A DNA stretch of 64,000 nucleotides, from NCBI GenBank assembly GCA_014905635.1, contig JABVCE010000021.1, positions 372,001-436,000 on the forward strand, in the 5' to 3' direction. Below the pieces are notes generated by a model. It saw only the letters and a program-made list of their open reading frames with translations. It was not told the DNA's origin and did no database searches. This stretch comes from Scenedesmus sp. PABB004 (Eukaryota). Positions 5,651 to 38,500 of this stretch are shown one piece after another; the first letter of the stretch is position 1; each line of letters opens with the position of its first letter. A program made the position numbers and the translations under genes.

Positions 5651-5679
5651 GCGGTGGCCGGCGGCGGCGGTGAAGCAGC

Positions 5680-5897: not shown

Positions 5898-5973
5898 TCG
5901 CTCGGCCGCGACGAGCCGGCGGTTGCGGTCGTGACGATCAAGCAGCTCGACCGCCACTGAGTCATGCCTGACG

Positions 5974-16722: not shown

Positions 16723-16753
<31 letters not shown>

Positions 16754-19700
16754 GGCCGCCTCACCAGCCAGACGGTCGCCACGTACGTGAGCAGCGAGAG
16801 CGAGCCGAGCTGCAGCAGCTGCAGGCCGCCGACGAGGGTGAGCAGGTCGTCCACCACGGCGGCGCTCCCGCCGGCCGGCGCGGCCGCGCGGCGGCTGCTC
16901 GCAAAGAGCGCCAGCAGCAGCACCAGCCACGCGTTGACCAGCAGGCTGTACATCAGCAGTGCTGGGCGGCGAGCGGGCGCGCGGGCGCGCGCGGGCGGTG
17001 AGTGCAGGCGGTGAGAGCGGCGTGGCGCGGCGCGCGCGGCGCGGGGCGTGTGGCGGCCGCGGCGGCGGCGCGTGGCGGCACCGCTGCGCACTGGTGTTGA
17101 TGAAAAAACCGTTGCCTGCAGGGCCCGGCGCGAGGCGACACAGCGCGGCGTTGTTGGCGGCCAGGCCGCGGGCAGGCGGGCGGGCGGTCGGCGTGTGTGC
17201 GCGGTGGGGCGCGCGCGGGGCGCGCGGGCCCGCGGCCGCCGCGGCCCGGCCGGCGGCGCGGCACACCGGTGTGGTACCAGGTGAGGAGGCGCGGCATGCT
17301 GAAGCGCCGCGCGAGGCGCTGCACGTCGCGGCTGATGACCTGCTCGCCGTTGCCGCCCGCGATCTGCAAGGGGTTGCGCGGCCGGGGCGGCGGCGGCCGC
17401 GCGTGGCGCCGCGGAACGGGCGGCGGCGCGCACGGCGCGCGGCGCGGCCCTGGCCGCGCCGCGGCGCAGCGGGCGGACTCGCGCGGGCGCGCCTTGGCCT
17501 CAAAGGTGTTGATCGACTCGAAGCCCATGTCGCGGCCCTTGCCGACGGCGATGTAGTCGACGTACGCCACGCCGCGCCCGCGCAGCATCAGGCCGTACCC
17601 ACCAAACACGTCCTCGCTCACGTGCAGGCCCTTGGTCGCCTGCGGCGGCGGCGGCGCCGCCGGCGGCGGCACGTCGGCAGGCCGGCGGCTGCGGACGCCC
17701 ACGCCTCGACAGAGCCTTGGACTGCGTGTGGCGCAGCGCAGCGCCGCCGCCCGGGCCGCACCTTGCTCACGCCGCCGCTGGTCATCACGAAGAGCTTGTC
17801 CCACACGTCCGGGTGGCCGTAGTGGAAGCGGCAGCCGCCTGCGCAGCACGGCGGCGGGAGCGTGGGCGGAGCAGCGCAGCCCGCTGCCTGCGCAGCGGCC
17901 GCGGCCGGCCGCCTCGCGCAGCAGCCGCCCGGCGGGCGCGCGCCGCACCGGGGTTGTGCATCAGGCGCTGCACCGTCGTGCCGAAGCTGCGCTCCGTGGC
18001 GGCCGCAAACTCGGCGAGCGCGCCGCTGTCCTCGCTGAACACCCACTCCCTGAACCCCACCAGCGCGGGGCCGAGCCGCGCGCCCCGCCCGGCGCCGCCG
18101 CCACAGCGCCAGCGCCGCGGCGGCGCGTCGCGCGGCGCGCTGCGCACGCCCGCGGCGGCGCCGCCGGGGCCATCGAACTCTGCCAGCAGGTTGGGCAGCT
18201 TGAGCGCCTCGGCCAGGTAGGAGTCCTGGTTGCAGTCGATCGTCTGCAGCGCCTCGCCGTGGCAAAAGGGCAGCGCGTGGTTCTGGTTCTCTGGCTTGCC
18301 CTCGCCCAGGATGACGCCGCCGTTGGTCTCGAGGTTCATCGGCAGCCGGATCCTGCAGGCCGGGCCGGGGGCGGGGTCGGCGCTGCGCGGGCCGGGCGAG
18401 AGAGACCGCGCGCGGCGCAGGCGGCCCCCCTGCGCTCCCCCACACGCGCGCGCCCGCCGCGCAGCGCCCGCCGCGCTGTGCGCGGCGCGCACCGGTACTG
18501 CTCGGCCACGCCGCCGGCAGACTCGCTCCAGCGCAGCAGCACGCTGTACTGGCGCAGCAGCTGCGGCCCCGCGCCGGCCTTGGTGCGGAGGCGCGGCCCC
18601 GCGTTCACCGCGCCGCCGCCCGCCTGCGTGGCGCGCGCGCGCCGCCGTCCGCGTTGCCACCCATGCCGCGCCCGCGCCGCGCCCGCGCCGCGCCGCCGCC
18701 GCCCAGGTTGCTGCCCCGCCGGCCGCGCACCTGCACAGCCACCGCGCCCGGCGGCGGGGCGCTGAGGTTTTCGGTGTCTATGTAGGCCAGCGCCAGCGCA
18801 GCAGCGTAGCGCCGCGCGAGCACGGCGCGCACGCAGTGGCTCAGCCAGCGGCGCGGCACGCCGCCGTCATTCTGAAACTCGCCCAGCGCCTGACTGTGCG
18901 AGCGGGCGCGGGCGGGCGCGGCGGGCGCGCGCGGTGCGGGGCGCGGGGCGCGGGCGTGAGCGCGGCGGGCTGCGCGGCTGCCCGCTGCGGGCACGCGCGC
19001 CGCGGCGTGTCAGCCCAGCCGGCAGCGCCCCGCCGCCCGCCCGCCGCCCGTCGCGCCTCGACACGACGTAGCTGAACTTCTGCCTTGCCAGCAGCTGCGC
19101 CGCGCGCTGCACCACCGCCTCCAGCCACGCGCTGCGCTCGCGCGCGTCCACCGCCACGCTGTCGCCGCCGCCGCCGGCCGCCCCCGCAAGCGCGGCCGCC
19201 GCCGCTGTGAGCTCGGCCTTGCGCTGCATCAGCACCAGCTGCTGCAGCGCCTGGCGGGGCGCGGGCGGCGCGCGCGTTGGCGTGGGGGCGCGCGGCGCGG
19301 GCGCACGCGCCGGGCGCCGCGCGCGTGCACGAGCGGCACGTGGTGGCGGCGCCGCCGCCGCCTGGGTTTAAGGGTTTAGGCCGCTGCCGCCGCCTGGGTT
19401 TAAGGTTTTAGGCCGCTGCCGCCGCGCGCACCGAGTGATAGTGCATGATGCCATGGACGGTCCGCTCCAGCAGCTGCCCGCGCATGGACGCCCACACGAG
19501 CAGCTCCTCGCGCCAGCCGTGCAGCACGCCGCCTGCGGGCGGGCGGCCGCGGCGCCGCGCCGCGCGCCGGCGGCCCGGCGTCAGCGCGGCGCGGCCGCCG
19601 CAACGGCGGCGGCGCGGCCCGCCCCCGCTGCGCGCGCGTCGCGCGCCGCCGCGCGCCGCACCGGGCGCAAAGTGCTCGGGCGTGACGTCGCCGGGCTTGG

Positions 19701-22700
19701 CGGGGCAGGCGGGCCCCAGCGTCGCGCGCACGTCTGGCCGCGTGATGACGCGCTGCGCAAAGTTCTTCCACTCGGCCACGTACGTCGCCTGGAGATACTT
19801 GAGCGTCTGCGCGGCAGCGGCCGCGGGTGCGTGGGCGTGTGCGCGCGCCGCAGGCGGGCGGCTGCTGGCCCGGGCGCGGCGCCGCCGCGCGCCGGCGGCC
19901 GGCGGGTCCGGCGCGGCGCGCGCGCCTCGGTGCGCTCGCCGGCGGGCGTGAAGAGGGAGCAGGGGTCGCCCGGGCGCAGGCGCGGGGCGCCCATGTCGGC
20001 GAGCGCGGTGGGCTCGTCCAGGGCGTACAGCACGTCCTCCCCGTAGTGCGGCGTCAGCGTCGTCATGCTGGCGGCGTTATAACGCGCGCAGCGCGCTTAT
20101 GTGAGCCGGCGCTTGAAACGCGCAGCGGGGACGCCGGCGCGGCGCGCGCGCGCGCGTGTGCTTGCAAGCGCCGGCACGGCGGCGCGCCGCACCTGCGCAT
20201 GAGCGCGACCGGCGGCGCGGTCGGCAGCAGCGGGTTGTGCAGGGAGGAGGCGAAGAAGCACAGCACGCGCGCCGCCTCGGGGCTGGCCGGCGCCGCGGCG
20301 CCGCGCGTGAGCGCGAGCATGTCCAGCAGCCAGGCGGCCACCTGCTGCGGCAGCGCCGCCGAGGCGCGCCACGCGTCGGGCCGCGCGCCGCGCGCGCCGC
20401 CGCGCCCGCAGCCGCCTCGCCGAGCGCCTTGGCCGCGCCGCCGCCGGCCACGGCCGCCACGGACTTGAAGGCCTGCTCCAGCAGAAGCTGGCTGTCAATG
20501 TCAGACAGGTCAATGGCCTGCAGCGGTGCAGTGCAGTGCGGCACGGCGGCAGCGCGTCAGCGCGGCTGCGGGGGCGGCGGCGCCGGCGCGGCGGCGCGCG
20601 CGGCGGCGGCGGCGGGTGCGGCGCGGCGCGGCGCGCACCGGCGCGGGGCCGGCGTCGTCGCCGCCCGCGGCGGCGGCGAGCTTGGCGTGCAGGCGCTGCA
20701 GCAGGTCGCGGCAGTCGACGAGCGCGGCCGCGGCGGCCTCCACGGTGCGGCTGCTGGCCACGCGCGGCGGCGCGCCGCCGCACTCGGCCGCCAGCCGCCG
20801 CGCCTCGTCGGTGGGGACGAGCATCAGCTGCGCCAGCTCGTCCTCCTGGAGCAGCCCGAGCGAGGCGAGCAGCCAGGCGAGCAGGTTGAACGCGCGGCAG
20901 ACCGCCTCCTCCTGCGTGAGGCTGCTGATGCCGGCGGCCGCGACCTCGACCGCCGCGCCGGCGACGACAAACCTGCGCGCGGGCCGCAGCACGCGTCCGT
21001 GCCGCGTGAGCCCGGCGCCGCGTGGGCCCGGCGCCGCGCGGCGCGGCGGCGGCGGCGCGGCGGCGCGCGCGCCGTGCCTGGGCGGCAGCAGCCAGGCGCC
21101 CTGCGCCGGCGCGGCGCCGTGGGCGAGCGTCTCGTAGCGCAGCCGGGCCGCCTCGTCGTGGCTCAGGTGGTCGCGCGCGCGCAGGTCGCCCACGACGCTG
21201 TCCCACGCTGCAGCAAAGAGCACCTCTGACGGCGGGCAGCGCGGCACGCAGTCCAGGAGCGGCGGCGCCGCGGCGCGCGCCCCGCCGCCGGCGCCGGCGC
21301 CGGCGCCGCCGACGCTGCTGGCGCGCCGCGACACGGCCGCCGCGGCGGCCGCCTCGGCGGGCACGTGCGCGCTGGCGGGCAGCAGGCGCTGCGCGAGCTT
21401 GCGGCTGAGCCCGGGGAACGCCCAGACCAGGTCGCCGACGCCCCTGCGCGTGCCGGGCGGGGCGGCGTGAGCGGCCCACCTCCGGTTCCCCCCGCCGGCA
21501 CGCGGCGCGGCGCCCCCCGCGCCCGCAGCTGCCGCGCCGCGCGCACTTGACGTGGCCCACGCGGCGGTGCAGGCCGAGCACGGCGGTGCTGTAGAGGGCA
21601 CCCACGAGCTGGAAGATGAGGCCGGTGTCATAAAAGACCAGGAACGCGGCGGCGACCCACATGCTCCACACCAGCAGCACCGCGTCGACCCACGCCCACC
21701 CGCTCGCGGGCGGCAGGCCAGAGTCGAGCGGTGGCGAGAGGCGCGAGAGCAGCGCGCGCGCGGGGCCCTGGCGGCGGGCAGCGGCGGCGGCGGGTTGTGG
21801 CGGCGAGCGCGGGCGAGGCGGGGAGGCGCGCGCCCTCTCTCGTTCTCCATCTGTCTCTGTCTGCCTCGCGCATGCGCGCGCGCGCATGCTGCCCTGCCAG
21901 CCCAGCACACGCACCTGTGCGAGCGGGCGCAGCACGACGAGGAAGTCAAAGAGAAACTTCAGGCACAGCACGACGCCCCACAGCCCGCACGCGGCGGCGT
22001 AGCGGGGCAGGTCGTGGCTGCCCGACAGCGCAGAGTACGGGAAAAAGTGCTCCGCGGAGCGCCTGCGGCGGCGGGCAGGCGGGCGGGCGTGGGGGGTGTG
22101 AGGCACTCGTGCGCCGACGGCGCGGCAGGCGGGCGCTGCCCCGCCCGCCGGCCTGTTGGCCCGCTGGGGCGCCGGCGCGCCGCCCCGGCGCCGGCGAGGC
22201 AGGCGCGCTCACCGAGCCTCCTTGTGGCTGAGGAAGCCCAGCCAGCCCTGCGCGCGCGGCGGGAGCGCCTCCGCGCAGCGCTTGGCGAGCTGGTGCAGCG
22301 CCCACGCCGCGCCGTACGCGGCCGACGCGAGCGCCCAGAGCGGGACGCGGCCGCCGCCCGGCAGCGCCGGCGTGCGGCCGCCGAGCGCGCGGTGCAGCGG
22401 CCAGCTGGGCAGGTGGCTGTCGAGCAGCACCCACACGCAGCCAAACCAGAAGAGCAGCGTGACGCAGTTGTGTGCCGCGAGCGCCGCGCCGCCGTGCACG
22501 GGCGGCGACACGCGCACAAGCGAGCCCTCGCGCTGCCGCCGCGTCTCCCACTGGCGCGCCCACCACGCCGCGGCGCGCGACGCGGGCCCGCGCGCCGCCT
22601 TGGCCGGCGCGCCGCCGCCGGCGAGGTCGCCGCCCGTCTCGGGCGCGGGCGCCTGCACCCGCACCGCGCTCGGCGGCGTGACGAGGTGCAGAATGGTCAG

Positions 22701-25328
22701 GTCCTTGGCCACGTGCAGCGCCGCGTGCGCGAGCAGCGCCCACGACGCGCAGAGCGCCACCGTCATGCCGTGCGCGGCCCAGAAGCGGCGGCCAAAGAGT
22801 TCGGGCAGGAAGCCGGAGCAGGCCGGCAGGCGCTCGCCGCTGCCGTCGAGGCAGACGTCAGGGATGAGGTACGCCTGCGCGGCGCGGCGCAGCGCGGCGC
22901 GCGTCGCGCGACGCGCGACGCGCGCCAGGCGGGGGCCGGCGCCGCCGGCGCGGCGCACAGCCCTCACGACAGCCTCCCCCCTCCCACAAAAAAACGCGCG
23001 CGCACCATGAGGCTCCACCACACGAGCAGCACCGCGTGCAGCGTGAGCAGGCGGCTGAACGCGACCGCGACCGCGCCGAGGCTGCGCGTCTCGACAAACG
23101 TCTTGCCCAGCCGCCCGCCCGCCCAGAGCTCGTCCGTCACGCGCAAGCTCGCGCCGAGGTGGCTGACCGGCGCGCTGCCGGCAACGCCGTCGGGCGCGCC
23201 GCCGCAGCCCGGCAGCGTCGCGGCGCGCAGCTGTCCGGCGAGCAGGTCCAGGCGCCGGTAGCTCCGCGGGTAGCGCCCCCGCGCCGCCTGCGTGGCGGGC
23301 CGGAACGCGAGCGCGCGGTGCGCGAGGCCGCCGCCGGGCGACGGCGACGCGTAGCTCGCCACAAACGCGGCCGACTCGGCGGCCTGCGGCGAGGCGGCGG
23401 CGGCGGCGGCGGCGGCGGGCTCGTTGGCGCGCGCGGTGCGCCCCCGCGTGCCCGGGCGGCGCCGGGCGTGAGCCGCACACACCTTGCGCTCAAAGAGGAG
23501 CAGCAGCCGGTCCCACGGGTCGGCGCCCGCGACCTCGCCGGCGTCCTGCGCCGCGCCGCCGCCGCGCCGCGCCGCGCGCGCGTCGCCGGCGAGCGCGCGG
23601 ACGAGGTCCAGCAGCACCTGCGGCGCCGCGCGCCGCGCGGTCGGCGCGCGGCCCGCGGCGGCGCCGCCGCGCTGGGCGCGCTGCCCGGCTGGCCTCCCGC
23701 AGGGGGCCACGCGCGCGCGCGCGCGCCGCACCGCAGGGATGCAGGCCGACTCATTGGCGTCGTCGTAGCCGAGGCGCAGCGCCGGCTGCTCCCCCGCCTC
23801 GCCCATGAGGCCGACCTGCTCCGCCAGCAGGTTGAACGCCGGCTGCACCGCCATGTCGAGCGCCACGCAGCCGTCGCCAAAGAAAGAGAGCTCGTCGTCC
23901 AGCAGCGCCGCCAGGTCACGGACGCCACGCCCCTGCGCCACGCGGCGCGCGCGTGGGGCGCCGGCGGCGGTCCGGCGGCGCGCTGCGGGCGCGGCGCACG
24001 CGTGCGCCCCACCTGCACGTGCAGGCGCTGGAGCCCGGCGCACTGCTGCGCCGCCAGCGACGTGACGCCGGCCCCGCCGCCCTGCGCCTGCCCGCCCGGC
24101 CGGCCCGTGGTCCACACATCCGGCGAGTATGACCAGCTGCAGTCGAGCAGCGCGCCGCGAATGAACGCACTGCCGCGCGCATTGCGCGCCGGCAGCAGCG
24201 CGCCGCGCACAAAACCCCGCGCCAGCACCGCCGCGGCCGCGTCAGGGCCCAGCCCGCCGCCGCCGCCGCCGCCGGCCCAGGCCAGCGGCGAGAGCGCGCA
24301 GCCCGGGTCGCCCAGCAGCGTGCAGGCCTGTGCGCGCGGGCGCCGGCGGCGGGCGCCGTCAGCGGGCCGCGGGCCCCACCGGCAGCAGCTGCCAGCGAGG
24401 GAGGGGTGTGCCGCGCGCGCCGCCTCGCCGCGCGGCGCATCGCACCGCGGCGTGGTTGGCGCTGGCGCGCATGAGGTGGAAGAGCAGCCACAGCAGCTCT
24501 GGTGTGTGCCGCAGGTTAGCCGCTTCGCTCCAGAGGCAGAAATACAGCGCCAGCTCGCCCAGCTCCCCCACCCAGCCGGGGCACGCCGTCACGAGCAGCG
24601 GCTGCTCGCCGCCGCCCGCGCCGCCGCCGCCGCCGCCGCCGCCGGTGCCGCCGCCGGTGCCGCCGCCGCCGCGGTGGCCGCGCCGCGTCCGGGACAGCTC
24701 GCGGTCCACCGCCGCCACGCCCGCCTTGTGGCGCCACGCGGCATACGGCGCAAACACGGCCGCGTGCAGCGAGCCCACGGCGCCGGCAAACACGTCGTCG
24801 GCGCTCCCACCGCCTGGCAGGCGGGCGCGGGCGTGGGCGCGGGCGGTCGGCCGGCAGCTGCCGAGCGCCCGGCGGAGCCGCGCCCCAGCAGCGAGCGGGC
24901 GCCCCCGGCGCGGCGCCCGCCCCGCCCCGCACCCGCGCCCTGCGCGACGACGGCCGCGCGGTCGCGCAGCAGCTGCACCAGGTGGTCCCCCGCCGCGCCG
25001 CTCGTCGCCGGCACGACCTCGCCCGCCTGGCCAACCTCCTGCGAGGCGTTGAATGCCTGGAAGCCGAATGCGCGCGCCTGCACGTGCACCGCCTGCGCGC
25101 AGCGGCGCGAGGTGGTTGCGGCGGTTGGCGCGCCGCCAGCGCGCAGCGCCCATGGCGACGCGGCTGCAGCCCCCCGCCGCCGAGCCCGGCAGCGGCGGCC
25201 CCCACCAGCTCCACCGCCACGCCCCAGGGCGCACGCCAGGGCCCCAGGCCGGCCACGACCGCCGCCGCAGCCTCGTCCACGGGCGGCAGCAGCGACGGTG
25301 CGGAGCTGCCACTGCCGTCGCGCGCCAT
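14110..25328 (-). CDS. Callose synthase / 1,3-beta-glucan synthase (GT48), paralog 1; many exons, termini approximate
   Basis: FGFQ, LYFCLWSEAANLRHTPELLWLLFHLM, GYDDANES, KTFVETRS, FFASSL, TTLTPHYGEDVLY, EWKNF, WASMRGQLLERTVHGIMHY, KFSYVVS, ILGEGKPENQNHA, QTIDCNQDSY, GFREWVFS, RFHYGHPD, SEDVFGG, GKGRDMG, GNGEQVISRD, YGGAKYSATGRG, YARSH. Confidence 0.93.
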
Positions 25329-25384
25329 CGCGGCGGCTGCCCGCTGAGCGGTGTGAGGGCTAGCGCGGCATCGCCGAGTCGCTC

Positions 25385-26050
25385 CCAGGCCGCGCGAGCG
25401 CGCCTAGCAGCCTCCTGGCGGCCGCGGAGCTGGGCGCAGCCAGCGGCGCCGCTGGCCTGAAGCACGGAGCACGGCGGCGCCGCGGAGCTCGCGCTGTGCT
25501 CGTGAGGTGTGTCTGACTGCCTGCGCGGGCTGAACCAGGCGAGCAGCTGCGGGCGCGGTTCTGCGCGCCGCATGCGCCGCAGCTGCCTCGCCGCCGTGGG
25601 CCCAGCTGCGCGCTCGCTGGTCCGGACACCCCAGCTCGAGGCGGCGCGCGCGCGGGCACTGGCTCGCAGGACCGACAGCCGGAGCGATGCCCCCGCCCTC
25701 CTAGCCCCGCCGCGCCGCGCCGGCAGCAGCGGCGGCGCTGCGTGCCCGGGCGGAGCGCCGGCGGGTGGCGCCCTGAGGCGGCGCCATGCTGTATCCACTG
25801 AGCGCCGTCCGGGCCACGCAGGCGGTGGGTGCGGTGGCAGCGAGGGGCCGCCGCGGGCCGGCCGCGCGCTGATCGAACGCCCCAGCAGCGCGTTCGACAG
25901 CTGCCCGCCCGCGCTTGACCGCCGGCGCCGCCGCTGGCTCCCAGGGCGTCTACGCGCTGGCCGAGGCGTTCGGCTTTCAGCAGTTCAACTTCTCGCCCGC
26001 CACGCAGGAGTGGGTCGCCGCCAGCGCGGGCCTGGCCGCCAACCAGCTCA
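25385..26050 (+). pseudogene. Truncated duplicate (~665 bp) of the upstream region and first exons of callose synthase 2 (counterpart 30832-31490)
   Basis: Near-identical DNA to 30832-31490 including an intron. Encodes GVYALAEAFGFQQFNFSPATQEWVAASAGLAANQL, then similarity ends. Confidence 0.92.
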
Positions 26051-26186
26051 GCGCGGCTTTCACGACGCCACACCGCCACAGCTCACGTTCGTTTGTTCGA
26101 GTGCTTTATAATACATCCGCCCGGTTCCACGCACAGCACCAGCGTTTCGTTTCCCACCAGAAGCGGGAGCTCCCATGCACGCCCGC

Positions 26187-26886
26187 TCACACCACGCTGG
26201 CCGCCGCCGCGCGCACGACGGGCGCGCTGCCGGGGGCGGCCCCGTGCGCGCTGAAGCTCTTGATCGACGTCAGCTCGGCCTTGGACATGTTGCTGCGGCG
26301 CGCCGCGCGGCAGAGCGGCGGTGAGCGCGGGCGGCGGGCGGCAGGCGGCAAGCGGCGGGCGGCGCACGCCGGCGGCCCCGCCCGCGCGACGCACTCGAGC
26401 TTGGTGCCGGTGCGCAGGCAGTCGATGGGGTGCACCGGCGCTGCCTCGTTCGGGTGCTTCGCCGGCCCGTACCTGCGCGCCGGGGTTGGCTCGCTCAGAC
26501 GGGGGGGGGGGGGTGCGTGCGCTGCACGGCCGCGGCGGCGCGGGCAGCGGCGGCACGGGGCGGGGCCGGCTCGGCCGCGCAGGGGCCGCGTCGCGCCTCT
26601 CGGGGAACAGCCTCCGCCGCTTGAGGTAACACAGCATGGCCAGGGAGCCGATGAAGATGCCGCCGAGCACGCACGCGATGATGATGCCCGCGACGGCGCC
26701 CTTGCTCAGCCCCGAGCCCGGGTAGATCGTTGGCCCCGGCAGCGCTGCAGCGTTGCCAGCGTTGTAGTTAAATTGTCCGAAGCCCAGGTCTTGAGAGAGG
26801 GACCCGCCCGCCTGCGCCGCGGCCGTGGCGGCGAGCGCGGACAGCACCAGCGCTGCCGTCGACGCGGCTCCCCCCGCGCCAGGCAT
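26187..26886 (-). CDS. Small single-pass type I membrane protein of unknown function; about 3 exons
   Basis: Signal-peptide-like AALVLSALAATAAAQ, short ectodomain, GLSKGAVAGIIIACVLGGIFIGSLAMLCYL TM helix plus KRRR stop-transfer, spliced tail ending VRAAAASVV-stop. Confidence 0.7.
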
Positions 26887-27161
26887 TCCGTGAGATGCGT
26901 CTCAATCGGCGAGTACAGCTTCGTCGGCCACGCCAAGCGGGGTTCTGGCGGTTGAGTGCAGCGGGTGGCCGAGTGGGGCTTTCGCCGCGGCGGCACCTTG
27001 CCCCCCGAAGAGCATCTCCCGGCGACGCCCAGGAATCAACCGCTTTCGTCGATCGGCCGTCCTCACCAGCGGCGCGCTTTGCTGTGTTCGCGCCCACAAC
27101 GCCTGGACCGGCGGTCGAACGGCGGCACCAGCTCACACCAGTTCAGACTACCTCGGCAGCC

Positions 27162-27890
27162 ATGGCGGCGGGCGCGCCCGACATCCTCTGGATCGTGGTG
27201 GTTGGAGGTGAGCGCGGCGGCGCGGCGCGGCCGCGGCGGGCCGGCGAGGCGGCGGCGAGCACGGCGCGCAGCGCAGCGCCCATGGCCATTATTCGCCCCG
27301 CCTGGCTCGCCCTGACCCGCCCGCGCCTCCCCGCGCTCAGGGATCGTCGCTTGGATGATGGCCTATGGCATTGGCGCCAACGGTGGGCCGCCGCTGCGCG
27401 CGGGGGGTGCGAAACGGGGCCGTGGCCGTGCTGCTGCGCCGGTGACGCACCGGTGACGTTGCCCCGCAGACGTCGCCAACGCCTTTGCCACGTCCGTGGG
27501 CTCGCGCACGCTCAAGCTCAAGTGGGCCATCGCGATCGCGGTGGTCATGGAGACCATGGGCGCCATCTTCCTCGGCGGCAGCGTGTCGAGCACCATCAGC
27601 GGCGGTGCGGCCCGCGCCGCGCCGCGCCGCGCCCCGCGCCGGGCGCGTGAGCCCGCGCGCCGCAGCCGGCCGCGCCCGGTCATGCGCGCGCGCGCCCGCC
27701 CACCCGCCGCGCAGGCGTGGCTGACCCCAAGACCTTCGCCAACACGCCAGACATCTTTGCCTATGGTGCGCCGCGGCGGTTGACCGATCAACGCCACGCC
27801 GCGCCCGGTCAACGCTGCGCCGCACCGGCCCGCCGCCCCCAGCGCCGCCCGCCGCCACCCGCGCCCACGCGCCCGCCCGCGCCCGCCCGC

Positions 27891-27931
<41 letters not shown>

Positions 27932-30402
27932 GCGCAGGCATGCTCTGCGCGCTCACGTCCGCCGCGTTCTGGCTGCTGTTTGCGACGTACTGCGAGCTGC
28001 CCGTGTCGACGACGCACTCCATCGGTGCGGGCGGCGCGCAGCGCCAGGGGCGCCGCCGCGCGCGGCCCCCACGTCCGCCCGCCGCGGCGGGGGCAGCCGG
28101 AACCCGGGGCGCCCCGGCCGCCGCCGCCGCCCCGCGCCGCGCGCCCTCCTGCCCGCTCCGCCTCGCCCCGCGCGCCCCTCACCCCTCCCGCCCGCGCGTG
28201 ACGCGGCGCGCAGTCGGCGGCGTGATCGGCTTTGCGCTCGTCTACAAGGGTGGCAGCGCGGTGATCTGGTGCGGCCGCACCTCGCAGTTTCCGTACGTCA
28301 CGGGCGTGGTGGTCATTATCGCGAGCTGGTTCATCAGGTGCTGCGTTCGCCCTGGCCCCTGCCGCCCCCTTTCCTCGCCTGCCTCTCTCACCCCCGCCCA
28401 CCCGCCCGCCGTCCCGCCCGCGCGCCTGCCCTCCAGCCCCCTGCTCGCTGGCATCATGTCGTACATCCTCTACACCATCCTCCGCCTCGGCGTGCTGCGC
28501 GGCCCCAACTCGCCGCGCAAGGCGATCTGGTGCCTGCCGCTGCTGCTGCTCATCACGCTGTTCGTCAGTGCGTGCACGCGCGCGCGCGCGCGCGGCTGGC
28601 AGCGCCCGCGGGTCAACCCGCGGCCGCCGGTCAAACGCGGCCGCCGGTCAACCGCGGCCGCCGGTCAAACGCGCCCGCCCCTCTCTCCCTCCCCGCACAT
28701 GTCGCCAGACATGTTTTTCATCCTCTACAAGGGCGCGAAGAACATCGTCAAGCTCGACATCACCACCGCGATCTGGGCGTCCGTCGTCGCCGGCGCCGGC
28801 GCGGCGCTGCTCGGCGCCGCGATCGGCGTGCCGCTGCTGTTCAGGCAGCTCAAGGTCTGGGACAACACCATGTGAGCGCCCGCCGCCGCGCGGGCGCGCG
28901 CGCCGCCGCCCCGGGGGGGGGCCGCTGCGGGCGCCGCGGCCCGGGCGCCGCGGCGCCGGCCCGTGGCCCGGCCTCACTGCTGCTCGCGCGCGCGCGCGTC
29001 CCCGCACCCCCGCCCGCAGCACGGACATGGAGAGCAGCGGCAAGGCGGTGCCCAAGGTGCTGCCGACGCTGCGCGGCAAGGCCGAAGTCGAGGGCAAGCA
29101 GGCGCTGCCCAACTGGATGATGGCGCGCGACGTCGACCCCAAGGACCAGAGCGTTGCCGCGTACTGGCAGCGCGCCAAGAACGGGATGTTTGGCGGCCTG
29201 CAGCAGGACATCTTTGCGGTGCGCCAGCCGCGGCGGCAGCCAGCCGCAGCGACGGCGCCACGCGCCTGCGTGCGGCCGCACCGACTGGCACCTGCGCCGC
29301 CGCCGCCGCCGCCGCGCCGCGCGCGACGCGCAGGCCGTCGACAACGACAGCTCCCTCAGCGACATCCACGACGCCGCGGAGGCCTTTGACCCCCGCACCG
29401 AGCAGGTGTTCAAGTACCTCCAAATCATCTCCGCCGCCGCCATGTCCTTTGCGCACGGTGCGCCGCCCGGCCGGCGGCGGGCTCAACTCGGCTCGGCGGC
29501 GGCGCCGCCGGCGCTGCCGCCAGCGCTGCCGCCGGCGCCGACGCCGCGCCGCGCGCCCTCCGCCCGCCGCCAGGCGCCAACGACGTCGCCAACGCGGTGG
29601 GCCCCTTTGCCGCGATCTACGGCATTTACCAGTACGGCTTCATCTCCCCAAAGAGCCAGGTGGAGCCGTGGATGCTCGCCGGCATCGGCGCCACGGGGTG
29701 CGGTCGCCGCGGCGCCCGATCGAGCCCCGCCCCGCCTCGCCCGCCGCGGCTGCCGGCCGGCGGCCGCGCCGCGCCGCGCCGCGCCGCCTGATCACACGCT
29801 GCCGCCGCGGCCGCAGCATCATCGTCGGCCTGGCGACGTGGGGCTGGCGCATCGTGCGCGTGCTGGGCGTGAAGCTGACCGCGATCACGCCCGCGCGCGG
29901 TTTTACGATGGAGACCACCACCGCGCTCGTTACCGCGTTTGGGAGCTACCTCGGCATCCCCCTGTCCACCACGCAGACGCACGTCGGCTCGACGACCGGC
30001 GTCGGCCTCGCCGAGGGCCGCCGCGGCGCGGTCAAGTGGAGCCAGCTGTGCCGCATGTTTGCGGGCTGGGTGTTCACGCTGATCATCGGCGGCCTGATCA
30101 GCGCCGCGATCTTCGCGTGGGGCACGTTTGCGCCGAGCAAGGCGTTTGGCGGGCAGATCTTGCAGTACCAGCGCCAGATCCAGTACACGACCGACGCGCA
30201 GCTTGCCGCGCTCAACGCCTCGGCGGCCGCCAACCCCGCGGCCGCGCCGCCCGGCCTCGCGGCGACGGCCAAGGAGTGGGCCGCGCTGACCGGCAACTCC
30301 AAGAGCCACGTGTGGCCCGCGACGACCATCGCGGCGTCGGACGTGCTGCCGATCGCCAACCAGACCGGCGAGATGTACAAGGCCATGGCGGCCGCGCCCT
30401 GA
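27162..30402 (+). CDS. PiT/PHO4 (SLC20) family phosphate symporter, PTB-like; multi-exon
   Basis: Both PiT signatures ([18 protein letters not shown] and [16 protein letters not shown]), plus [16 protein letters not shown] and [19 protein letters not shown]. Confidence 0.95.
28611..28671 (+). repeat. Four ~17-bp tandem units containing GGTCAA in a PTB intron
   Basis: ggtcaacccgcggccgcc ggtcaaacgcggccgcc ggtcaaccgcggccgcc ggtcaaacgc. Confidence 0.85.
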
Positions 30403-30774
30403 CTGAGCGTGTGGGTGGGAGGAGGCCTCGGGTGATGTGCGCCGGTCTACGTGCAGTCGCAGGACTACGCTGACCAGTGTTGAACAGAGGCAGAACTTCG
30501 TTGACTTCAACAAACTTGAATCATGAGGGCCTCGCTCGGCGACCCTTGGGCTTTCGGACAACGCCCCGTGCATGTGGGCACATGTGGATGTGCATGTGGC
30601 TCAGGCATGCCAACGCAAGCGTGCAGGGCGGGCGGCGGACTTCTTTGGGGCGTTAGGCGCGTGCCCCAGCCGGGGCCTGCGCGCCGCGGCGGGGCGCGCG
30701 GCGGCCGCGAATTGTCGGACCCCCAACGAAAACGAACGTCTTGCATAAAGAAAGCGCGCGAACTGCCGCGCCAA

Positions 30775-30779
30775 TGTAA
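30775..30779 (+). promoter_or_regulatory. Candidate TGTAA polyadenylation signal of the PTB gene
   Basis: TGTAA lies ~370 nt after the stop in a lower-GC 3' region; TGTAA is the established chlorophyte poly(A) signal. Confidence 0.5.
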
Positions 30780-31226
30780 AGAGCTACTATGGAGTCCCCC
30801 GGCACCGAGCGCCTTCACTGAGCCGTCGCGGCCAGGCGGCGCGAGCGCGCTCTGGCGGCCGCGGAGCACTGGGCGCAGCCAGCGGCGCCGCCGGCCTGAA
30901 GCACGGAGCACGGCGGGCGCCTGCGGAGCTCGCGCTGTGCTCGTGAGGTGTGTCTGACTGCCTGCGCGGGCTGAACCAGGCGAGCAGCTGCGGGCGCGGT
31001 TCTGCGCGCCGCATGCGCCGCAGCTGCCTCGCCGCCGTGGGCCCAGCTGCGCGCTCGCTGGTGCGCACACCCCAGCTCGCGGCGGCGCGCACGCGGGCAC
31101 TGACTCGCAGGACCGACAGCCGGAGCGATGCCCCCGCCCTCCTAGCCCCGCTGCGCCGCGCCGGCAGCAGCGGCGGCGCTGCGTGCCTGGCCGGAGCGCC
31201 GGCGGGTGGCGCCCTGAGGCGGCGCC

Positions 31227-32541
31227 ATGCTGTATCCACTGAGCGCCGTCCGGGCCACGCAGGCGGTGGGTGCGGTGGCTGTGAGGGGCCGCCGCGGGCC
31301 GGCCGCGCTGATCGAACGCCCCTAGCAGCGCGTTAGACAGCTGCCCGCCCGCGCTTGACCGCCGGCGCCGCCGCTGGCTCCCAGGGCGTCTACGCGCTGG
31401 CCCAGGCGTTCGGCTTTCAGCAGTTCAACTTCTCGCCCGCCACGCAGGAGTGGGTCGCCGCCAGCGCGGGGCTCGCCGCCGACCAGCTCAACGCGCTGCT
31501 GCGCGATGCGGCGGTGCGCCGAGCAGCGACCAGCGCGCCGCCGGCGGGCCTGTCCGTGGTGGGCTCGCGCCCGCCGAGCGCGAGCGGCGCGGCGCCGGAC
31601 GAGGCGGCTGCGGCGGCGGCGGCCGCCGCGGCGACGGCGGCGTGGCAGCAGGCGGTGCTGGACGTTCACGCCGAATACTTTGAAGAGCAGAGCCGCTGGG
31701 CCGCGCAGCTCGGCCTGCCCGCGCCGCCGCCGGCGCTCGGGCGCGCCGCGAGCCCGGGCGACCGCGCGGCCGCGCTGCTGCTGGAGCTGGCCCTGCAAGC
31801 GCTCATCTACGCCGAGGCGGCCAACCTGCGCCACACGCCGCACCTGTGCTTCCTGCTCCACCACATCATGCGCAGCAGCGCGCCGTTTGCGCAGGCGCGC
31901 ACGCACGCGCCTGGCGCGACCGCCGCGGTCCCGGCCGCTGCTCGGCCGGCGGGGGCACGCCCGCGCGCTCACGCGCACGCGCTGCGCCGCGCCGCGCCGC
32001 GCCGCGCCGCGCCCCGCCGCAGGCGGCCGCAGCGTTCGCCGCCCCGGGCGCGCCCCCGCAGCCGCCGCACTGGCGCTATTGGTTCTCGTGGCCCGCGGCC
32101 GACTGGCCCAGCCGGCCCAACGGCTACGACGTCACCAGCCTGCGCCGCAACCTGCTGCAGCAGCTGCACCTCGGCTGCCCAGAGGCGCTGCTCCGCCGCG
32201 GGCCGGCCGCGGCGCCGGGCGCCGAGGCGGCCCACGCGGCGGCGCTCGGCGACGCGGCGCGCGGCGTGCTGGCGACGTTTGCGGAGCCCGCGCACCGCGC
32301 GCTCGCCGAGGCGCTGCTCGCGTCGGTGCTGGGCCTGTTTGGGCGCGACGAGCGCGGCCAGCTGCTGCCGGACCCCCCTGCGGGCGGCCCGCCGCGCGGG
32401 CAGCAAGTCTTCCTCAACTGGGTGAGGCACCACTGCAGCCGCCGCCGCTGCGCGCCAGCCGCCGCTGCGCCCGAGCCACGCCGCGCCACCGGCAGGCGGG
32501 GGCGGCCCGCAGCCAGCTGGCAGCGCCGCCGCACACGCCCC

Positions 32542-32572
<31 letters not shown>

Positions 32573-35500
32573 TGTGCAGGTGGTGCAGCCGCTGTTCTTT
32601 ATCTTTGCCGAGCAGATTGACCTTGCTGGGCAGCAGGGCAGGGAGGAGCCGGCGCTGCGCCTGGGGTACGACGACTTTGACGAGGCCTGCTGCAGCCCCG
32701 CCCGCGTGGCGCGCCTGCTCGGCCAGCTGCGCGGCGCCGACCCCTGGGCGGCGCTGCTCGGCGCGCTCGCGCCGCCGGCCGCGCCGGCGGCGGCGGGGGG
32801 CAAGGCGCGCGCGCGCAAGGAGCGCTACCCCCGCAGCCTGGAGCGCCAGCAGCTGCTGGCCAGCCTGCCCGCGCTGCTCGCGCCCGCCGGCGCCGACGCG
32901 GCCGGCGGCGCCGGGGGCCTGCCGGCGGTGCGGCACGAGTCCGAGGACCTCGCCACGGTGCGGGGCGGTGGCCGCCGCGGCCCGCGCGCAACCGCCGGCG
33001 CCCAGCCCGCGCCGGCACGCCGCCGCCACCGCAGATCTACGCGCGCGCGCGGCACGGAGCAGACTGGTGGGTGCGGCAGCTCTTCCGCACCAAAACCTTT
33101 GTCGAGGCGCGCAGCCTCGCCGCGCCTTTTGTGGCCTACTGGCGCGTTTATGCTTTCCACGCCGCCCTCTTCGCCGCCATGGCCGCCGTGGTGCGTGGGT
33201 TCTGTGTGGGGGCGGCGCGCGGCTACGGGGCGGCGTCCCTGCACGCTGCCCCACCGCGCTCGGCGCCGGCGGCCTGGTTGCAGCGCCGCGCCTCCCCCGC
33301 CGCCGCCGCCAACCCGCCGCCGCCGACCTGGCCGCCGCCGCCGCCGCAGACGTTCATGGTCCGCTTGCGGCCAGCGCTGCTGGCGGCCGGCGACACGCCG
33401 GCGCAGTGGTGGTGGCGCGTCGCGGCGGGGCTCGCGCTCGGCACGGCGGCCGACGCGGCGATGCGCGGCGCGCGCTGCGCCGCGCACCTGGTGCTGCTGG
33501 CGCACCAGGTCTGGCCGGCGCTGCGCGCGCCGCCCGGTGGGGGCCCGACGGTCTTCTTGCATCCCTTCCCCGCGCGCGCCTGGTGGCGCGCGCCGCTGCA
33601 CGGCCTCGGCCTCGCGCTCTGGGCGGCCTGGGCGGGCGTGCTCGCGCTCTGCGTCGTCCCGCTGCTCGCCGCCGCGCCGGTGCCGTTCCTGCGGCCGGTG
33701 TTTGACGTCCTGCACGGCCCGGGGCGCGCGCCGCCGCGCGCGCCGCTCTGGCTGCTGCCGCCTGGCGCGCACGCGCTCGTGCTCTGGGGCGGCGCGGCCG
33801 CGCGGCAGCGCGCCGGCTACGCGATGACGTGGCCCGCGCTCGCGGCGGCCGCCGCCGCGGCGCTCGCGGGGCGGCGCCCCGGCCGCCGCGCCGCGCCGCA
33901 CGCCGACTGCGCGGCCGACCCCGCGGTCGAGGCCCTCTTCTTCCCCGCCACCGCGCTCGCGGTCGAGCCGCGCCGCTGGCTTGCCAACGCGGCGCTCTGG
34001 GGCGTCGTGCTGTCGGTCAAGGTGGCCTTCGAGGCGACGTGCGTGGTCTACCCCCTCACCGGCGTCATGCTCACGGCAAGGCGTCAGCATGCTGAGGACA
34101 CTGCGCCCGCGCGCGGCCTGCGGCACCACGCCTCGCCGCGCCGCCCTGACGCACGCGCGCCGCCTCCTCCTGAACCCTCAACCCTAAACCCTAAACCTTT
34201 GACCCCCGCAGCTCACGAGCGGCGGCGGCTTCTGCTTCCTCAAGCAGCTCGACGACCCGGAGCCCCCGGGGCACGACCACACCGTGGCCTGCCCGCTCAG
34301 CCACGCCGCGACGCTGTGCGCGCTCGCGGTGCCCGCCGTGCTGCTCAGCCTGTGCGACACGGGGCTGCTGCTCAGCGTCGTCGGCGGCGCCTGGTCGGCG
34401 GCGCTCGGCTTCCGCCGCGGCGTGGGCAGCATCAAGTGTGCCGCAGCCCTGCCGAGCGCGCGGTGGCCGAGCGCCGCCCTGCGCGTCGCAGGCGCAGCCG
34501 CCGCCGCTGACCCCTGCCGCTGCCGCCGCGATGCCCGCCTGGCGCAGGAGCTGGTCGCAGCTTGTGAGCCGCTTCCAGCCGCTGTTGGAGAGCTATCGCG
34601 CCCACTGCGTGAGCCGCGGCGCGCTCGCGCTGCACCTGGCGCGCTGCTCGCAGCTCGACCCCGGCGCGGCGCTGCAGCAGGTGCGGGCGCCGGGCCGGCA
34701 GCGCGCGGCCGGGCCCGCCGTTACGCGCCGCTGCGGCCAGCGACTCGCGGTCGGCCTGCCGCCCCGCTCCGAGCCGCTGCCGCCGCCCTCGGCTCGGCAA
34801 ACAGGTGAGCCTGGCGGCGCTGGCCGCCGGCTGGAACGCGCTGGCCATCGACCTCCGCCAGCGTGACCTGTTGAGCAACCGCCAGCTCGCTTGCCTCCTG
34901 TTTGAGTCGCTGCAGCTGGAGCCGGAGCAGCTCGAGGAGCTGCAGCGCCGCAAGCTGCCCACCGTGCTGCCGGCCAGGTCGGCGCGCGCGCGCGCGCCGG
35001 GGCGGGCCGCGCGGCAGCAGCCCGCGGCGCCGCCGGCGGCCAAGCGGCGGCGGCGGCGGCGGGGCCTGACCACGCTGCGGTCACTCGCCGCCTCCTGCCT
35101 GGCAGGTGCTTCATGGTTGGTGCGGTGCCCGAGCTCGCTGCCGCGCTGCCGGGCTCCGCGCAGCACCTGTGGGTGGCGGAGATGGGGTGGGCTTGGTTCG
35201 TTTGGGTCTGCCTGCAGTGCGGCCTCGTCACGCCGGACGAGGGCAAGGACCTGGCGCGCCTGCAGCTCCCGCACCCGCCCGCGCAGCGCGAGCACATGCG
35301 GCGCCGCCTGCGGCTACTGGCCGAGGCGGTGACCCTGCTGCGCCTGCTCAGCGCGTCGGCGAGCCCCAGCAACGTCGCCGCCGCGGCCGCCGACGCGGCG
35401 CGCGCGGCCGCGTGCGACGGCGTGCCCCTCGCCCCCGCCGCCGGCGGCGGTGCCGCCGCGGCCGCCGCCGGCTCCCGCGGGCTGCTGCACGGCGTGCCCA

Positions 35501-38500
35501 CGGCCGAGGGCGAGCGGCTGGCGCGCTGGCAGGAGCTCAAGGCGTGCGTGGCTCAGCTCATCATGCACCTCGAAGAGGAGGTGAGCCGAGCTGAGCTGAG
35601 CTGAGCTGAGCAGCGCCGAGGCGGGCTGAGCCCAGGCGAGCGCCGTCCGGCGCCGCGCCCAGGCCCCGCCCGTCCCCACTGCCCGCCCGCGCGCAGGTGG
35701 AGGGCCTCAGCCTGCCGGGCGCGGCGGCGCTGCCGCGGCTCAAGGCGCGCTGGGCGCCGTACCTCGACCGCGAGCGCGTGGCGGCGGCCTACAGGTGAGC
35801 CGGCGGCCGCGGCGCCGCGGCGGCGCTCGGCGCGGCCGCGCGACGGCGCCCGAGCCGCCGCCGCCCGCCCGCCTGCCGCGCGCACGACGCGCAGGCGCGA
35901 CCAGGAGCAGCTGGCGCTGGGGCTGTCGGACGCGCGGCGCCGCGAGCTCGCCGCGCGGCGCCAGCGCGAGCAGCGCCAGGAGGCGGCGCGCGACGCGGCG
36001 CACATGGCCGATGTGCTCGCGCGCCTGTCCGCGGTCGGCGCGGCGTCGGCGGCGGTCGCGCAGGCGGCCGGGTGGCTCGTTGACGTGCTCACGCTGCACC
36101 AGTCTGACTCGGTGCCGAGCCAGGCCGAGGCGCGGGGCGTCATCCTGAGCTTCGCCGCCAGCCTCGCCGACCCGGGGCTCGCGAGCCCGCCGTCGCTGCA
36201 CGTCGCGCCCAGCCTCACCACGCTGGTCCCACACTACGACGTGAGGCGGCCGCCGCGGGGCGGCCGACGCAGTGCCCCGCTGCGCCCGACGCCGGGCCTC
36301 TGTCCGGCCAGCGCCCCACTCGAGCGCCGCCACCGCCTTGCCGCCGCCGCCGCGTCCGCCTGCAGGAGGAGGCCATGTATGCCCTCACACCCGGCGACGC
36401 CCTCGCCGACCTGCGCGCGCGCGCGGCGCTGCAGCGGGGCGGCCGCCCCGCGAGCGCGACGCCGCCCGCGCCCGCGCCGGGGCCGGCGCCCGCGCCGGGC
36501 GGCGGCCCCGCGGGGCGCGAGAGCCTGGCCTGCCTCATGTCTGACGACGGCTGCCCCACGCCGACCATGGCCTACCTCCGCAGCAATTTTGGCGCGCCCA
36601 GGTGGGCTGGCAAGCGCACTGAGGCCCGCACGCGCGCGTCGGGCCCAGGCGCGGGCCGTGCCACGCGCGCGACACGACGTGCCGCCCGCGCCGCCGCAGC
36701 GGGCGGGGGCCGAGCCAGTGGGCCAACTTTGTGGAGCGCGTCACGGGGCTCGCCGCGGCGGCGGGGCTCGACCGGCGCGCGCTGCCGGAGCGCATCAACG
36801 AGGTGCGCTGCGCTTCGCGCCGCGCTGTGCGCCGTGCGCTGCATGCTGTGCGCGGCGCTGTGCAGGCCCCCGTGCCGACCGCCGTCCCCTGCCCCCCCCC
36901 CTGCCCCCCCCCCTGCCCCCCCCTGCCCCCCCCTGCCCCCCCCCCCCCTGCCCCCCCCCCCCCCGCTGCAGTACCACTTCCTGCCAGGCGAGCCGCTGCA
37001 CCCCTGGAAGGAGGAGCTGCTGCTGTGGGCGAGCTGCCGCGGGCAGCTGCTCGCGCGCACCGTGCGCGGCCTGCTGAGCTACCGGGCTGCGCTCGCGGCG
37101 CTCGCTGACTTCGAATACCCCCGGCCCGCGCCGGGCGGCGCCGCGCTGGCGCTCGACGTCCCCGCGCGCGGCGGCGGCGGCCTCGCGGCGTCCGCACCGG
37201 CGGCGCTCGCGGCGGCGCGGCGCAGCAGCGCCGGCGGCGGCGCCGGCGCCGGCGCCGCGGCCGGCGGCACGGAGGCGCTGCGGCTGGGCGCCGGCGAGCT
37301 GCGGTCGGCGGTGCTGGACGACCTGCTGGACGCGAAGCACGGCCTCATCGTGAGCAGCCAAAACCTGGGCGCGCTCGCGGCGCGCGGCGCCTCGGACGCG
37401 CGCGCGGGGTGGCTCGTGCACAGCGTGCGCCGCCTCATGGACCGGCACCCCAGCCTGCGCGTCGCGTACGTCGACGCGGCGCCGCTGCTGCGCGGCGGGC
37501 GGCCGGGGGCCGGGCCCGCGCTGTCGCGCGGCGCGAGCGTGCTGCTCGCGAGCGAGCGCCAGCGCCGCCTCGCCGCGGCGGTCGGCGTGCACCTGCACGA
37601 GGAGCAGTACCGGTGAGCGCGAGACGTCCGCTGGCGGCCCGCCCGCGTCTCCACCGAGCGCGTGCGCGGCGTGCTGCCGCTGCGCCGCTCGTGTGCGCGC
37701 CGCTCACGCCCGCACGCCCGCGCGCGCCCGCGCCCCGCCGCACACGCCGCAGCGTGCAGCACCCCATCAACTTTGAGTCTGACCGCGGCGTCATCCTGGG
37801 CGAGGGCAAGCCGGAGAACCAGAACCACGCGCTGCCCTTTTGCCACGGCGAGGCGGTGCAGACGATCGACTGCAACCAGGACTGCGTGGTCGCTGAGGGC
37901 CTGAAGCTGCGCAACCTGCTCGCGGAGCTGCTGCCGCCGGGCTGGGCGTCGCCGCCGCGGCCCGCGAGCCTGCAGCGCCGCCTGGGGCCGCTGCTCGGCG
38001 GCGGCAAGGACACGGCGGCGGCGGCGCCGCCGCTGCCGCCCGCGCGCGGGCGGCGCGGCACGGCGCCTGGGGCGCCGCAGCTTATGGATGACATGCCCCG
38101 GGGGCGGGGGCGCGTGGCGCTGGTGGGGTTCAGGGAGTGGGTGTTCAGCGAGGACAGCGGCGCGCTCGCCGAGTTTGCGGCCGCCACGGAGCGCAGCTTC
38201 GGCACGACGGTGCAGCGCCTGATGCACAACCCCGGTGCGGCGGGGCGGGGCGCAGCCACTCAAGCGGCGCGGCCACTCGCAAAGGGCCCGCGCGCTCACG
38301 CGCGCGCCATCTGGGCGGCGGCGCACCGCAGGGGCCTGCCGCTTCCACTACGGCCACCCCGACGTGTGGCGGCGCTCGTACGTCGCCACCTGCGGCGGCG
38401 TGAGCAAGGTGCGGCCCGGGCGGCCGCGCTGCGCTGCGCCGCGCGCAGTCCAAGGCTCTGTCGAGGCGTGGGCGTCCACAGCCGCCGGCCTGCCGACGTG

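Follow-up and report, generated by a model that had tools for sequence, protein, structure and literature searches.

The 64,000-nt stretch of nuclear DNA analysed here (hereafter the window) is taken from the green alga Scenedesmus sp. PABB004 (assembly GCA_014905635.1, contig JABVCE010000021.1, positions 372,001 to 436,000 of the forward strand). It carries two head-to-head genes for predicted callose synthases, CalS1 and CalS2, which are held apart by a two-gene cargo lying between two direct copies of the CalS2 upstream region and gene start. The direct repeat is genuine, and as a trace left by error-prone DNA repair it is fairly ordinary. Our favoured reading, to which we tentatively assign a probability of about 0.45, is that a two-gene cassette of 4769 bp was inserted between CalS1 and CalS2 during error-prone break repair, with duplication of 0.68 kb of the target. 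The choice between cassette entry and a 0.68-kb proximal capture, in which the smaller piece was copied from nearby DNA, is nearly even, and both fall into known classes of break-repair products. The polarity of the event (that the cargo moved in), the repair route and the ancestral compactness of the CalS pair are what we infer from the arrangement.

The direct repeat and the genes that it flanks

The gene map was drawn from Pfam searches of stop-to-stop open reading frames (ORFs), which covered the window up to 50 kb. The locus is made up of the following elements.

15777..25328, minus strand: CalS1, GT48 1,3-beta-glucan (callose) synthase; evidenced part, 3' end unmapped (Pfam and gene-start model)
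25378..26055, plus strand: left copy, truncated, of the CalS2 upstream region and start of the gene (alignments); it holds copies of the ATG (25786), exon 1 (25786-25824), intron 1 (25825-25944) and exon 2 (25945-26055)
26886-26187, minus strand: coding sequence for a predicted small (180-aa) membrane protein; exons 26886-26528, 26472-26395 and 26292-26187 (GT..AG introns, open frame)
27162..30402, plus strand: coding sequence of a PHO4/PiT-family sodium/phosphate (Na/Pi) transporter of the PTB/PHO89 type, 603 aa; intact, 12 exons, all introns GT..AG (Pfam PHO4 and 12-exon model)
30403..30824, plus strand: 3' untranslated region (UTR) of the transporter and right end of the cargo, with AACGAACGT at 30731-30739, ATAAAG at 30745-30750 and TGTAA at 30775-30779
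30825..31495, plus strand: right copy, functional; CalS2 upstream region, ATG, exon 1, intron 1 and start of exon 2
31227..39532, plus strand: CalS2, GT48 glucan synthase; evidenced part, 3' end unmapped (Pfam and paralogy to CalS1)

A strict self-BLASTN of the window aligns 25415-26055 with 30852-31495 at 96.3% identity over 646 columns (E = 0). Laxer scoring widens the repeat to 25378-26055 and 30825-31495, in direct orientation, at 94.6% over 683 columns, and both repeat finding and MAFFT alignment agree with BLASTN. A first-pass annotation of the same DNA had placed near-identical copies at 25385-26050 and 30832-31490, and the re-measured ends fall within 7 bp of these. The left copy is 678 bp long, and the two copies are spaced 5440-5447 bp from start to start. 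In the right copy 402 bp precede the ATG at 31227, and exon 2 runs on past the end of the repeat. The genes to every side of the two copies are intact. The left copy is truncated, since it ends at about 26055, 111 nt into its copy of exon 2; the first pass had recognised this truncation but had put the copy about 60 bp from the start of CalS1, a distance that we measure as 49 nt to the modelled ATG (25328, minus strand).

Twenty substitutions and 6 indel events of up to 10 bp separate the copies in a global alignment. The substitutions are spread evenly along the repeat (about 5-6 per quarter), and both edges are more ragged. Codon reading of the copied coding part gives five differences, three that change an amino acid and two that are silent. 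Because the copies are distinct by these substitutions and indels, they are not a collapsed or looped assembly path. That they stem instead from different haplotypes or strains, or from a loop in the assembly graph, is very improbable. The public runs found, which hold only short, low-depth contigs of a relative about 97% alike, leave some room for such an artefact, but a single mis-join cannot flank 4.8 kb of unique, complete-gene sequence with two diverged copies, and NCBI's independent model of the transporter is identical to ours. The source assembly is moreover highly contiguous, a comparative paper listing it as 39.8 Mb in 77 contigs with an N50 of 1.3 Mb, 7,092 genes, 78.5% GC and 1.31% repeats (PMC12571836).

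CalS1 and CalS2 as old head-to-head paralogues

By their Pfam matches and conserved motifs both synthases belong to the GT48 1,3-beta-glucan (callose) synthase / FKS family, and their activity is predicted. CalS1 matches FKS1_dom1 at about 24455-24559 (27.5 bits against a cut-off of 27) and Glucan_synthase in minus-strand ORF pieces at 15.8-20 kb (up to 104.7 bits). CalS2 matches Glucan_synthase at 36.1-39.5 kb with 166.1 bits; its FKS1_dom1 score of 17-18 bits is under the cut-off, and the conserved FGFQ and EAANLRHTP motifs are present. The core exons of the two genes share 56-83% amino-acid identity, and self-BLASTN finds an inverted nucleotide match between them (17264-18323 against 38918-37782, 80-87%).

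The starts of both genes were modelled. CalS2 would open with a first exon of 13 codons (31227-31265), followed by an intron of 119 nt (31266-31384, GTGGGT..CAG) and by exon 2 from 31385, which begins GVYALAQAFGFQQFN and continues to EAANLRHTPHL within an FKS1_dom1 core with FGFQ. The CalS1 model, on the minus strand, has its ATG at 25328, a first exon to about 25206 with several candidate phase-0 donors (for example GTGGGG at 25205), and an acceptor at 25092 that is followed by AVHVQARAFGFQAFN, with FGFQ at 25068. The intron position, 7 codons before AFGFQ, is common to both paralogues.

A search of a representative protein library with CalS2 exon 2 gave 50 matches, 7 of them at E <=1e-10; four proteins were retrieved, none of which is the window's own. 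One of them, P0127, which derives from a transcript of Flechtneria rotunda and is 61% identical, has 13 N-terminal residues followed by GVYLLSKELGFQQFN, with the same 'GVY' as CalS2, and its 13-residue start therefore supports the exon 1/exon 2 model. The earlier identification of the copies as the CalS2 upstream region and first exons is borne out by both the gene model and this orthologue. A fragment from Gonium pectorale (P0131) looks CalS1-type. With the intron position shared, P0127 and P0131 at hand and the cores 56-83% identical, both gene starts are supported, and CalS1 and CalS2 are real, old head-to-head paralogues, each with orthologue-like proteins of its own in other algae. As the paralogues are inverted and the left copy is in direct orientation relative to CalS2, ectopic gene conversion between them was ruled out.

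The cargo

The cargo occupies 26056-30824 (4769 bp) and comprises two genes; the three-exon and 12-exon models confirm the small membrane-protein gene and the PTB gene that the first pass had seen between the copies. The transporter model is letter-identical to the NCBI protein "PHO89 [Scenedesmus sp. PABB004]" (P0007, 603 aa), for which the domain PF01384 is precomputed. Its introns measure 87-189 nt, a GANDVAN motif is found in both protein halves, and Pfam PHO4 matches fall on four of its ORF pieces, with 103.1 and 58.4 bits against a cut-off of 33.7 bits. The protein belongs to the PHO4/PiT family (PF01384) with its two-half architecture intact, and a transport function is predicted. The nearest named relatives of its last exon are found in Tetradesmus obliquus (a phosphate transporter, 81%; Tetradesmus locus tags OEZ86_000558 and OEZ85_010613, proteins WIA30474.1 and WIA10421.1), Raphidocelis (56%) and C. 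reinhardtii (a sodium/phosphate symporter, 46%). The product of the small gene begins with a signal-like N-terminus, contains one hydrophobic stretch and ends in a basic tail; it falls into no Pfam family even at E values up to 1 beyond a best match to VSP (E = 0.19) that is under the cut-off, and its exon 1 has a third-codon-position GC content (GC3) of 0.87. A run of about 13 G on the plus strand (26503-26515) lies inside its modelled first intron.

The two cargo genes are divergent and separated by a 275-nt spacer (26886 to 27162), and the 3' UTR of the small gene reaches the end of the left repeat copy. The cargo pair looks like one unit because it extends from 3' UTR end to 3' UTR end, because its genes are divergent and because rare AAACGAA-type motifs are shared. 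A foreign origin was ruled out: cargo GC3 is 0.94-0.98 (0.94 for the whole transporter coding sequence), and for the exons of the synthase, of Nop14 and others it is 0.92-0.97, so that third-position GC equals that of the neighbouring genes. A donor PTB locus, which the first pass had envisaged, did not come to light: there is no second copy of either cargo gene within the 64-kb window, and the 90%-identity protein cluster of the transporter has 1 member on 1 contig.

Short AT-rich words mark the two 3' UTRs. The word AACGAACGT occurs exactly twice in the window, once per cargo-gene 3' UTR (26085-26093, minus strand, and 30731-30739, plus strand); AAACGAA occurs 4 times against 0.23 expected, three of the four in cargo-gene 3' UTRs, and ATAAAG 3 times against 0.52. 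Such words, common to 26085-26152 (minus) and 30730-30750 (plus), are otherwise nearly absent from the window, and could be a 3'-end or regulatory element. The usual poly(A) signal of chlorophytes is TGTAA. The first-pass annotation had let the cargo end just after such a signal, and the word is indeed there, at 30775-30779, 45 nt before the right copy; its role as a signal is not supported, because only 2 copies are seen in 64 kb (30775, plus, and 62195, minus) against 3.4 expected. The alga may use a poly(A) signal other than TGTAA.

The least probable of all the explanations weighed here is that the cassette was the load of a DNA transposon and the repeat its target-site duplication. Direct repeats do flank the cargo, and two short AT-rich motifs lie inverted near its ends, but the cargo ends show no terminal inverted repeat: the motif that they share is set back from them by 29 to 94 nt, and when the terminal 200 nt are aligned in inverted orientation the best match is internal and GC-rich. 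The 47 ORFs scanned across 22.9-33.8 kb gave no transposase or integrase domain, and the cargo has no other copy in the window. Transposases are, besides, not known to make target duplications anywhere near 0.68 kb in length.

Which piece moved

If the cassette moved in, the ancestral CalS1 and CalS2 would have formed a compact divergent pair, 457 nt from ATG to ATG. This spacing results when the cargo and one copy are removed, an operation that the first-pass annotation had said would give a compact divergent pair. The cassette would have entered the intergenic region during error-prone repair of a break, with about 0.68 kb of target being duplicated along one of two routes. Opposite-strand nicks about 0.68 kb apart might have been filled in and the cassette joined between the ends; alternatively, a replicative template switch might have left the locus at CalS2 exon 2 to copy the cassette and then come back at a point upstream of the CalS2 promoter. 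By either route each synthase gene would retain its whole upstream region, the left copy would bear the dead CalS2 5' end, and no transposase would be needed. The earlier claim that a shared promoter was duplicated by the insertion, so that each gene kept a copy, is sound as anatomy but goes further than the evidence in taking the cargo as the piece that moved. Integration of a circle, which had also been suggested, finds no support; a circle integrating by homology would need to carry the repeat already.

Cassette entry is favoured by its non-disruptive geometry, in that CalS1 retains 49 nt plus about 400 bp of upstream sequence and CalS2 a full copy. The restored 457 nt is also comparable in size to the spacer between the divergent cargo genes (275 nt). 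Under the opposite polarity the cassette would be ancestral, and the 0.68-kb left copy would have been captured from the same-strand CalS2 5' region at a distance of 5.4 kb. The break would have lain 49 nt upstream of the CalS1 ATG; synthesis-dependent strand annealing or template switching would have patched it, and the sequence originally upstream of CalS1 might have been lost in the process. We consider this account plausible, if somewhat short of probable. An ancestral gap of only 182 nt from the small-gene stop to the CalS1 ATG (26187-26056 plus 25377-25328) would then have to be accepted, as against 825 nt between 30402 and 31227 and about 927 nt between 9093 and 10020, two same-strand gaps read in the window. 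An insertion of 0.68 kb so close to the ATG would displace the CalS1 promoter, cutting the gene off from sequence beyond -49 and placing an oppositely pointing promoter there, and the donor segment would have to start by chance within about 30-50 nt of the end of the transporter 3' UTR. The size and distance of the supposed capture are likewise slightly too large for the human examples, whose maximum is 619 bp and whose proximal bound is 5 kb (PMC2671141).

Several points weigh against the entry of the cassette and to the credit of its rival. Neither an empty site nor a donor locus was seen, in the 64-kb window or, with its single member, in the 90% cluster of the transporter. Copying repair leaves its donor in place, and therefore a later loss or a cut-and-paste step has to be assumed, whereas capture of the left copy needs no cargo donor at all. 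Cassette entry also calls for two coincidences, both cargo ends lying just beyond 3' UTRs without a fragment of a donor-side neighbour; for a captured patch the acceptor is the only intergenic gap available, and its position involves no coincidence. The cargo's native codon usage would be expected just as much after long residence, and the even divergence along the repeat is neutral as to polarity. Breaks are known to capture proximal DNA, a common mechanism (PMC2671141), and it has a direct precedent only 20 kb away. At the 5-10 kb locus, beside a 36-bp duplication, patches of 28, 218 and 34 bp have their sources 0.3 kb upstream or 3.6-3.8 kb downstream, those at 5680-5897 (95.9%) and 5895-5928 (34/34) from the 5' region of the downstream gene. 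The breakpoints of the left copy are less telling: the only short match is the 8-bp AGCGCGGC, 9 bp before the copy and at its very end, which would suit a templated patch but is at chance level (about 1.6 expected, by estimate, among the position pairs compared), whereas the 5-10 kb locus shows a clear 36-bp duplication and 100% patches.

It is quite improbable that the locus arose in two steps, a 0.68-kb tandem duplication of the CalS2 5' region being followed by a cassette insertion at or near the copy junction, where it would be harmless. Multi-step histories do occur in this window, the copies at 5-10 kb being of different ages (84.9% against 95.9-100%), and tandem duplications from staggered breaks are common (PMC8355091). 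Two independent events at one spot would nevertheless be required, a separate junction has left no mark in the sequence, and a donor is likewise missing from the window and the transporter cluster. The single-step entry of the cassette therefore stays our favoured reading, with proximal capture close to it.

The comparison locus at 5-10 kb

A second truncated gene start lies in the same window, where a copy of the upstream region and first exon of a sodium/sulfate (Na/sulfate) symporter gene is found about 4.5 kb upstream of the intact gene.

3606-4888, plus strand: CemA-family gene (Pfam CemA, PF03040)
4853-4888 and 5925-5960, plus strand: direct repeat of 36 bp (35/36) that ends at the CemA-family stop codon and brackets a block of symporter 5' copies
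5178-5650 (A1): matches 9704-10183 (A2) at 84.9%
5655-5682: 28-bp patch, matches 5369-5396 at 28/28
5680-5897 (B1): matches 9296-9504 (B2) at 95.9% (218 bp)
5895-5928: 34-bp patch, matches 9719-9752 at 34/34
5928-5960: patch matching 4856-4888, the last CemA coding bases including the stop, at 33/33 (35/36 from 4853)
9296-9504 (B2) and 9704-10183 (A2), plus strand: source copies, upstream region and first exon of the Na/sulfate symporter
about 10.0-12.5 kb, plus strand: Na/sulfate symporter (Pfam Na_sulph_symp)

Because A1 is 84.9% and the other pieces are 95.9-100% identical to their sources, the copies are of at least two ages. The young block at 5655-5960 draws on four short templates that lie 0.3-3.8 kb away, and this mosaic bears the unmistakable signature of template switching during repair or replication. 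The first-pass annotation had seen in this locus the same design as at CalS1/CalS2. The truncated 5' copy upstream of an intact gene is there as described; what it took for a single insertion is a mosaic of two ages and four patches.

Two such architectures thus occur within 64 kb, both beside nutrient-transporter genes (sulfate and phosphate), and the left copies at both begin 47-49 nt from the coding sequence of the neighbour. They might be the visible products of a recurrent, transposon-independent relocation of genes in a streamlined, repeat-poor genome, in which cassettes land at promoters with target duplications of 0.7-0.9 kb; we hold this to be unlikely. Equally unlikely, in our estimate, is the corollary that the duplications would span the full intergenic region plus the first 40-55 codons of the downstream gene, so that both neighbours keep their regulation.

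The gene that lies between the symporter 5' copies (6815-9093) ends with C-X2-C-X17-C-X2-C, the spacing of a GATA-like zinc finger, for which the Pfam match is weak (GATA, E = 0.17, 12 bits against a cut-off of 26.8 bits). It contains an alanine-rich tandem repeat of 36-bp period at 7965-8147. A perfect palindrome of 120 bp (9109-9228), its two 60-nt arms 100% complementary and joined without a spacer, begins 16 nt beyond the stop codon (9091-9093) of this gene, which is the one that precedes the symporter; partial copies of one palindrome arm extend up to 9260.

The remainder of the window

The window has a GC content of 73-81% along its entire length, and its genes have short GT..AG introns and a GC3 of 0.87-0.98. 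Apart from the repeat described above, the remaining long self-matches by self-BLASTN are the inverted match between the synthases, the direct repeats at 5-10 kb, the palindrome and internal tandem repeats. The gene map is completed by one further entry.

1-1807, plus strand: Nop14 (Pfam on ORFs)

The Nop14 fragment matches chlorophyte proteins at 37-60% identity. The CemA family (PF03040) is better known from chloroplast genomes; the match at 3606-4888 is a nuclear gene.

Relatives in metagenomes

Related DNA was sought in public sequence data, among which two freshwater-metagenome DNA runs of one study have word shares of 0.13 and 0.07 with the window; there is no RNA run among those listed. 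The contigs that fall on 20000-37000 cover up to 606 nt of the stretch, are about 97% alike and have low depth. None of these strain contigs in the region examined, 20000-37000, bridged a junction between repeat and cargo. One contig of 196 nt, on 25871-26069, extends 14 nt further than the left copy, which is under the 31-nt rule for bridging, and it was left uncounted. Apparent joints in the metagenome contigs were distrusted, their sides being only 20-27 nt long at GC-rich repeats. In these runs, contigs of unrelated organisms piled up on a poly-C stretch near 36964 to a very high summed depth.

A broader metagenome scan with alignment of the CalS motifs reduced 388 pattern matches to four confirmed loci (L001-L004), two of which (L002 and L003) are near-duplicates. 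They belong to distant relatives, with a GC content of 54-64% and 43-58% identity, and contig ends cut off their upstream flanks at 2.6-4.4 kb. Among 145 ORFs in the upstream flanks of L001, L002 and L004 (the near-duplicate L003 being omitted) Pfam found neither PHO4 nor a second glucan synthase. The four loci are uninformative on synteny because they are too distant and their flanks too short. An aprataxin-like gene (DcpS_C/HIT and zf-C2HE) lies upstream of the glucan synthase on the same strand in L004 (2-1084).

Implications

Whichever piece moved, the practical value of the locus is modest. It clarifies the annotation of the region, in that the left copy is a dead 5' fragment and not a gene start, and with about 3% substitutions it provides a clean and dated marker by which strains of the alga can be compared. 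If the cassette moved in, a compact genome would have taken a gene pair into a shared promoter with neither neighbour harmed, and long target duplications could serve as "insulation". If it was the small copy that moved, a promoter and first exons would have been captured by repair in an alga, a process that can seed new promoters or chimeric genes.

Comparison with known systems

The transporter itself is nothing unusual: it resembles the PTB/PHO89 Na/Pi symporters of green algae and yeast in its PF01384 match and its two GANDVAN motifs. The arrangement around it can be set beside several kinds of break repair. Fork stalling and template switching (FoSTeS) and microhomology-mediated break-induced replication (MMBIR) produce multi-patch mosaics, and when the fork re-enters upstream of its point of departure, the templated insertion comes to be flanked by a duplication; what is seen at 4.9-6.0 kb looks like such a mosaic. 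In grasses, genes are said to have been moved by double-strand-break repair with filler DNA of kb size, the donor copy being retained and the flanking repeats short (work reported by Wicker and colleagues in 2010). The present cargo is like that reported filler DNA in that intact genes with their introns would have been inserted without transposon features, and unlike it in its long flanking repeat and in the lack of any donor among the sequences searched. Vaughn and Bennetzen reportedly described in 2014 how staggered breaks, when filled in, yield tandem duplications that may or may not include filler DNA. Staggered-break fill-in is also the subject of Schimmel et al. (2021; PMC8355091), who describe products that share with our locus the direct repeats of target DNA flanking the joint, the lack of a transposase and the possibility of trapping foreign DNA. 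Their duplications are mostly tens of bp, with 43-nt overhangs in the experiments (PMC8355091), whereas here the repeat measures 0.68 kb and the DNA that would have been trapped is 4.8 kb with two whole genes.

Proximal capture in the human genome is the closest parallel for the opposite polarity. There the donor lies within 5 kb in 824 of 1,136 duplicons, the captured pieces average 162 bp with a maximum of 619 bp, acceptors can become chimeric, microhomology spans 2-9 nt and target duplications 4-21 nt (PMC2671141). As in that class, nearby DNA would have been copied to a second site, with exons, UTRs and regulatory sequence duplicated and chimeric acceptors possible, and the donor would lie a few kb off on the same chromosome, although at 5440-5447 bp it is just beyond the 5-kb bin. 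The left copy, at 678 bp, exceeds the maximum of 619 bp, which is a weak failure as the human range comes from another lineage; the patches of 28-218 bp at 5655-5960 fit the class well. On either polarity, the CalS1/CalS2 locus adds a further case to the known classes of break-repair products.

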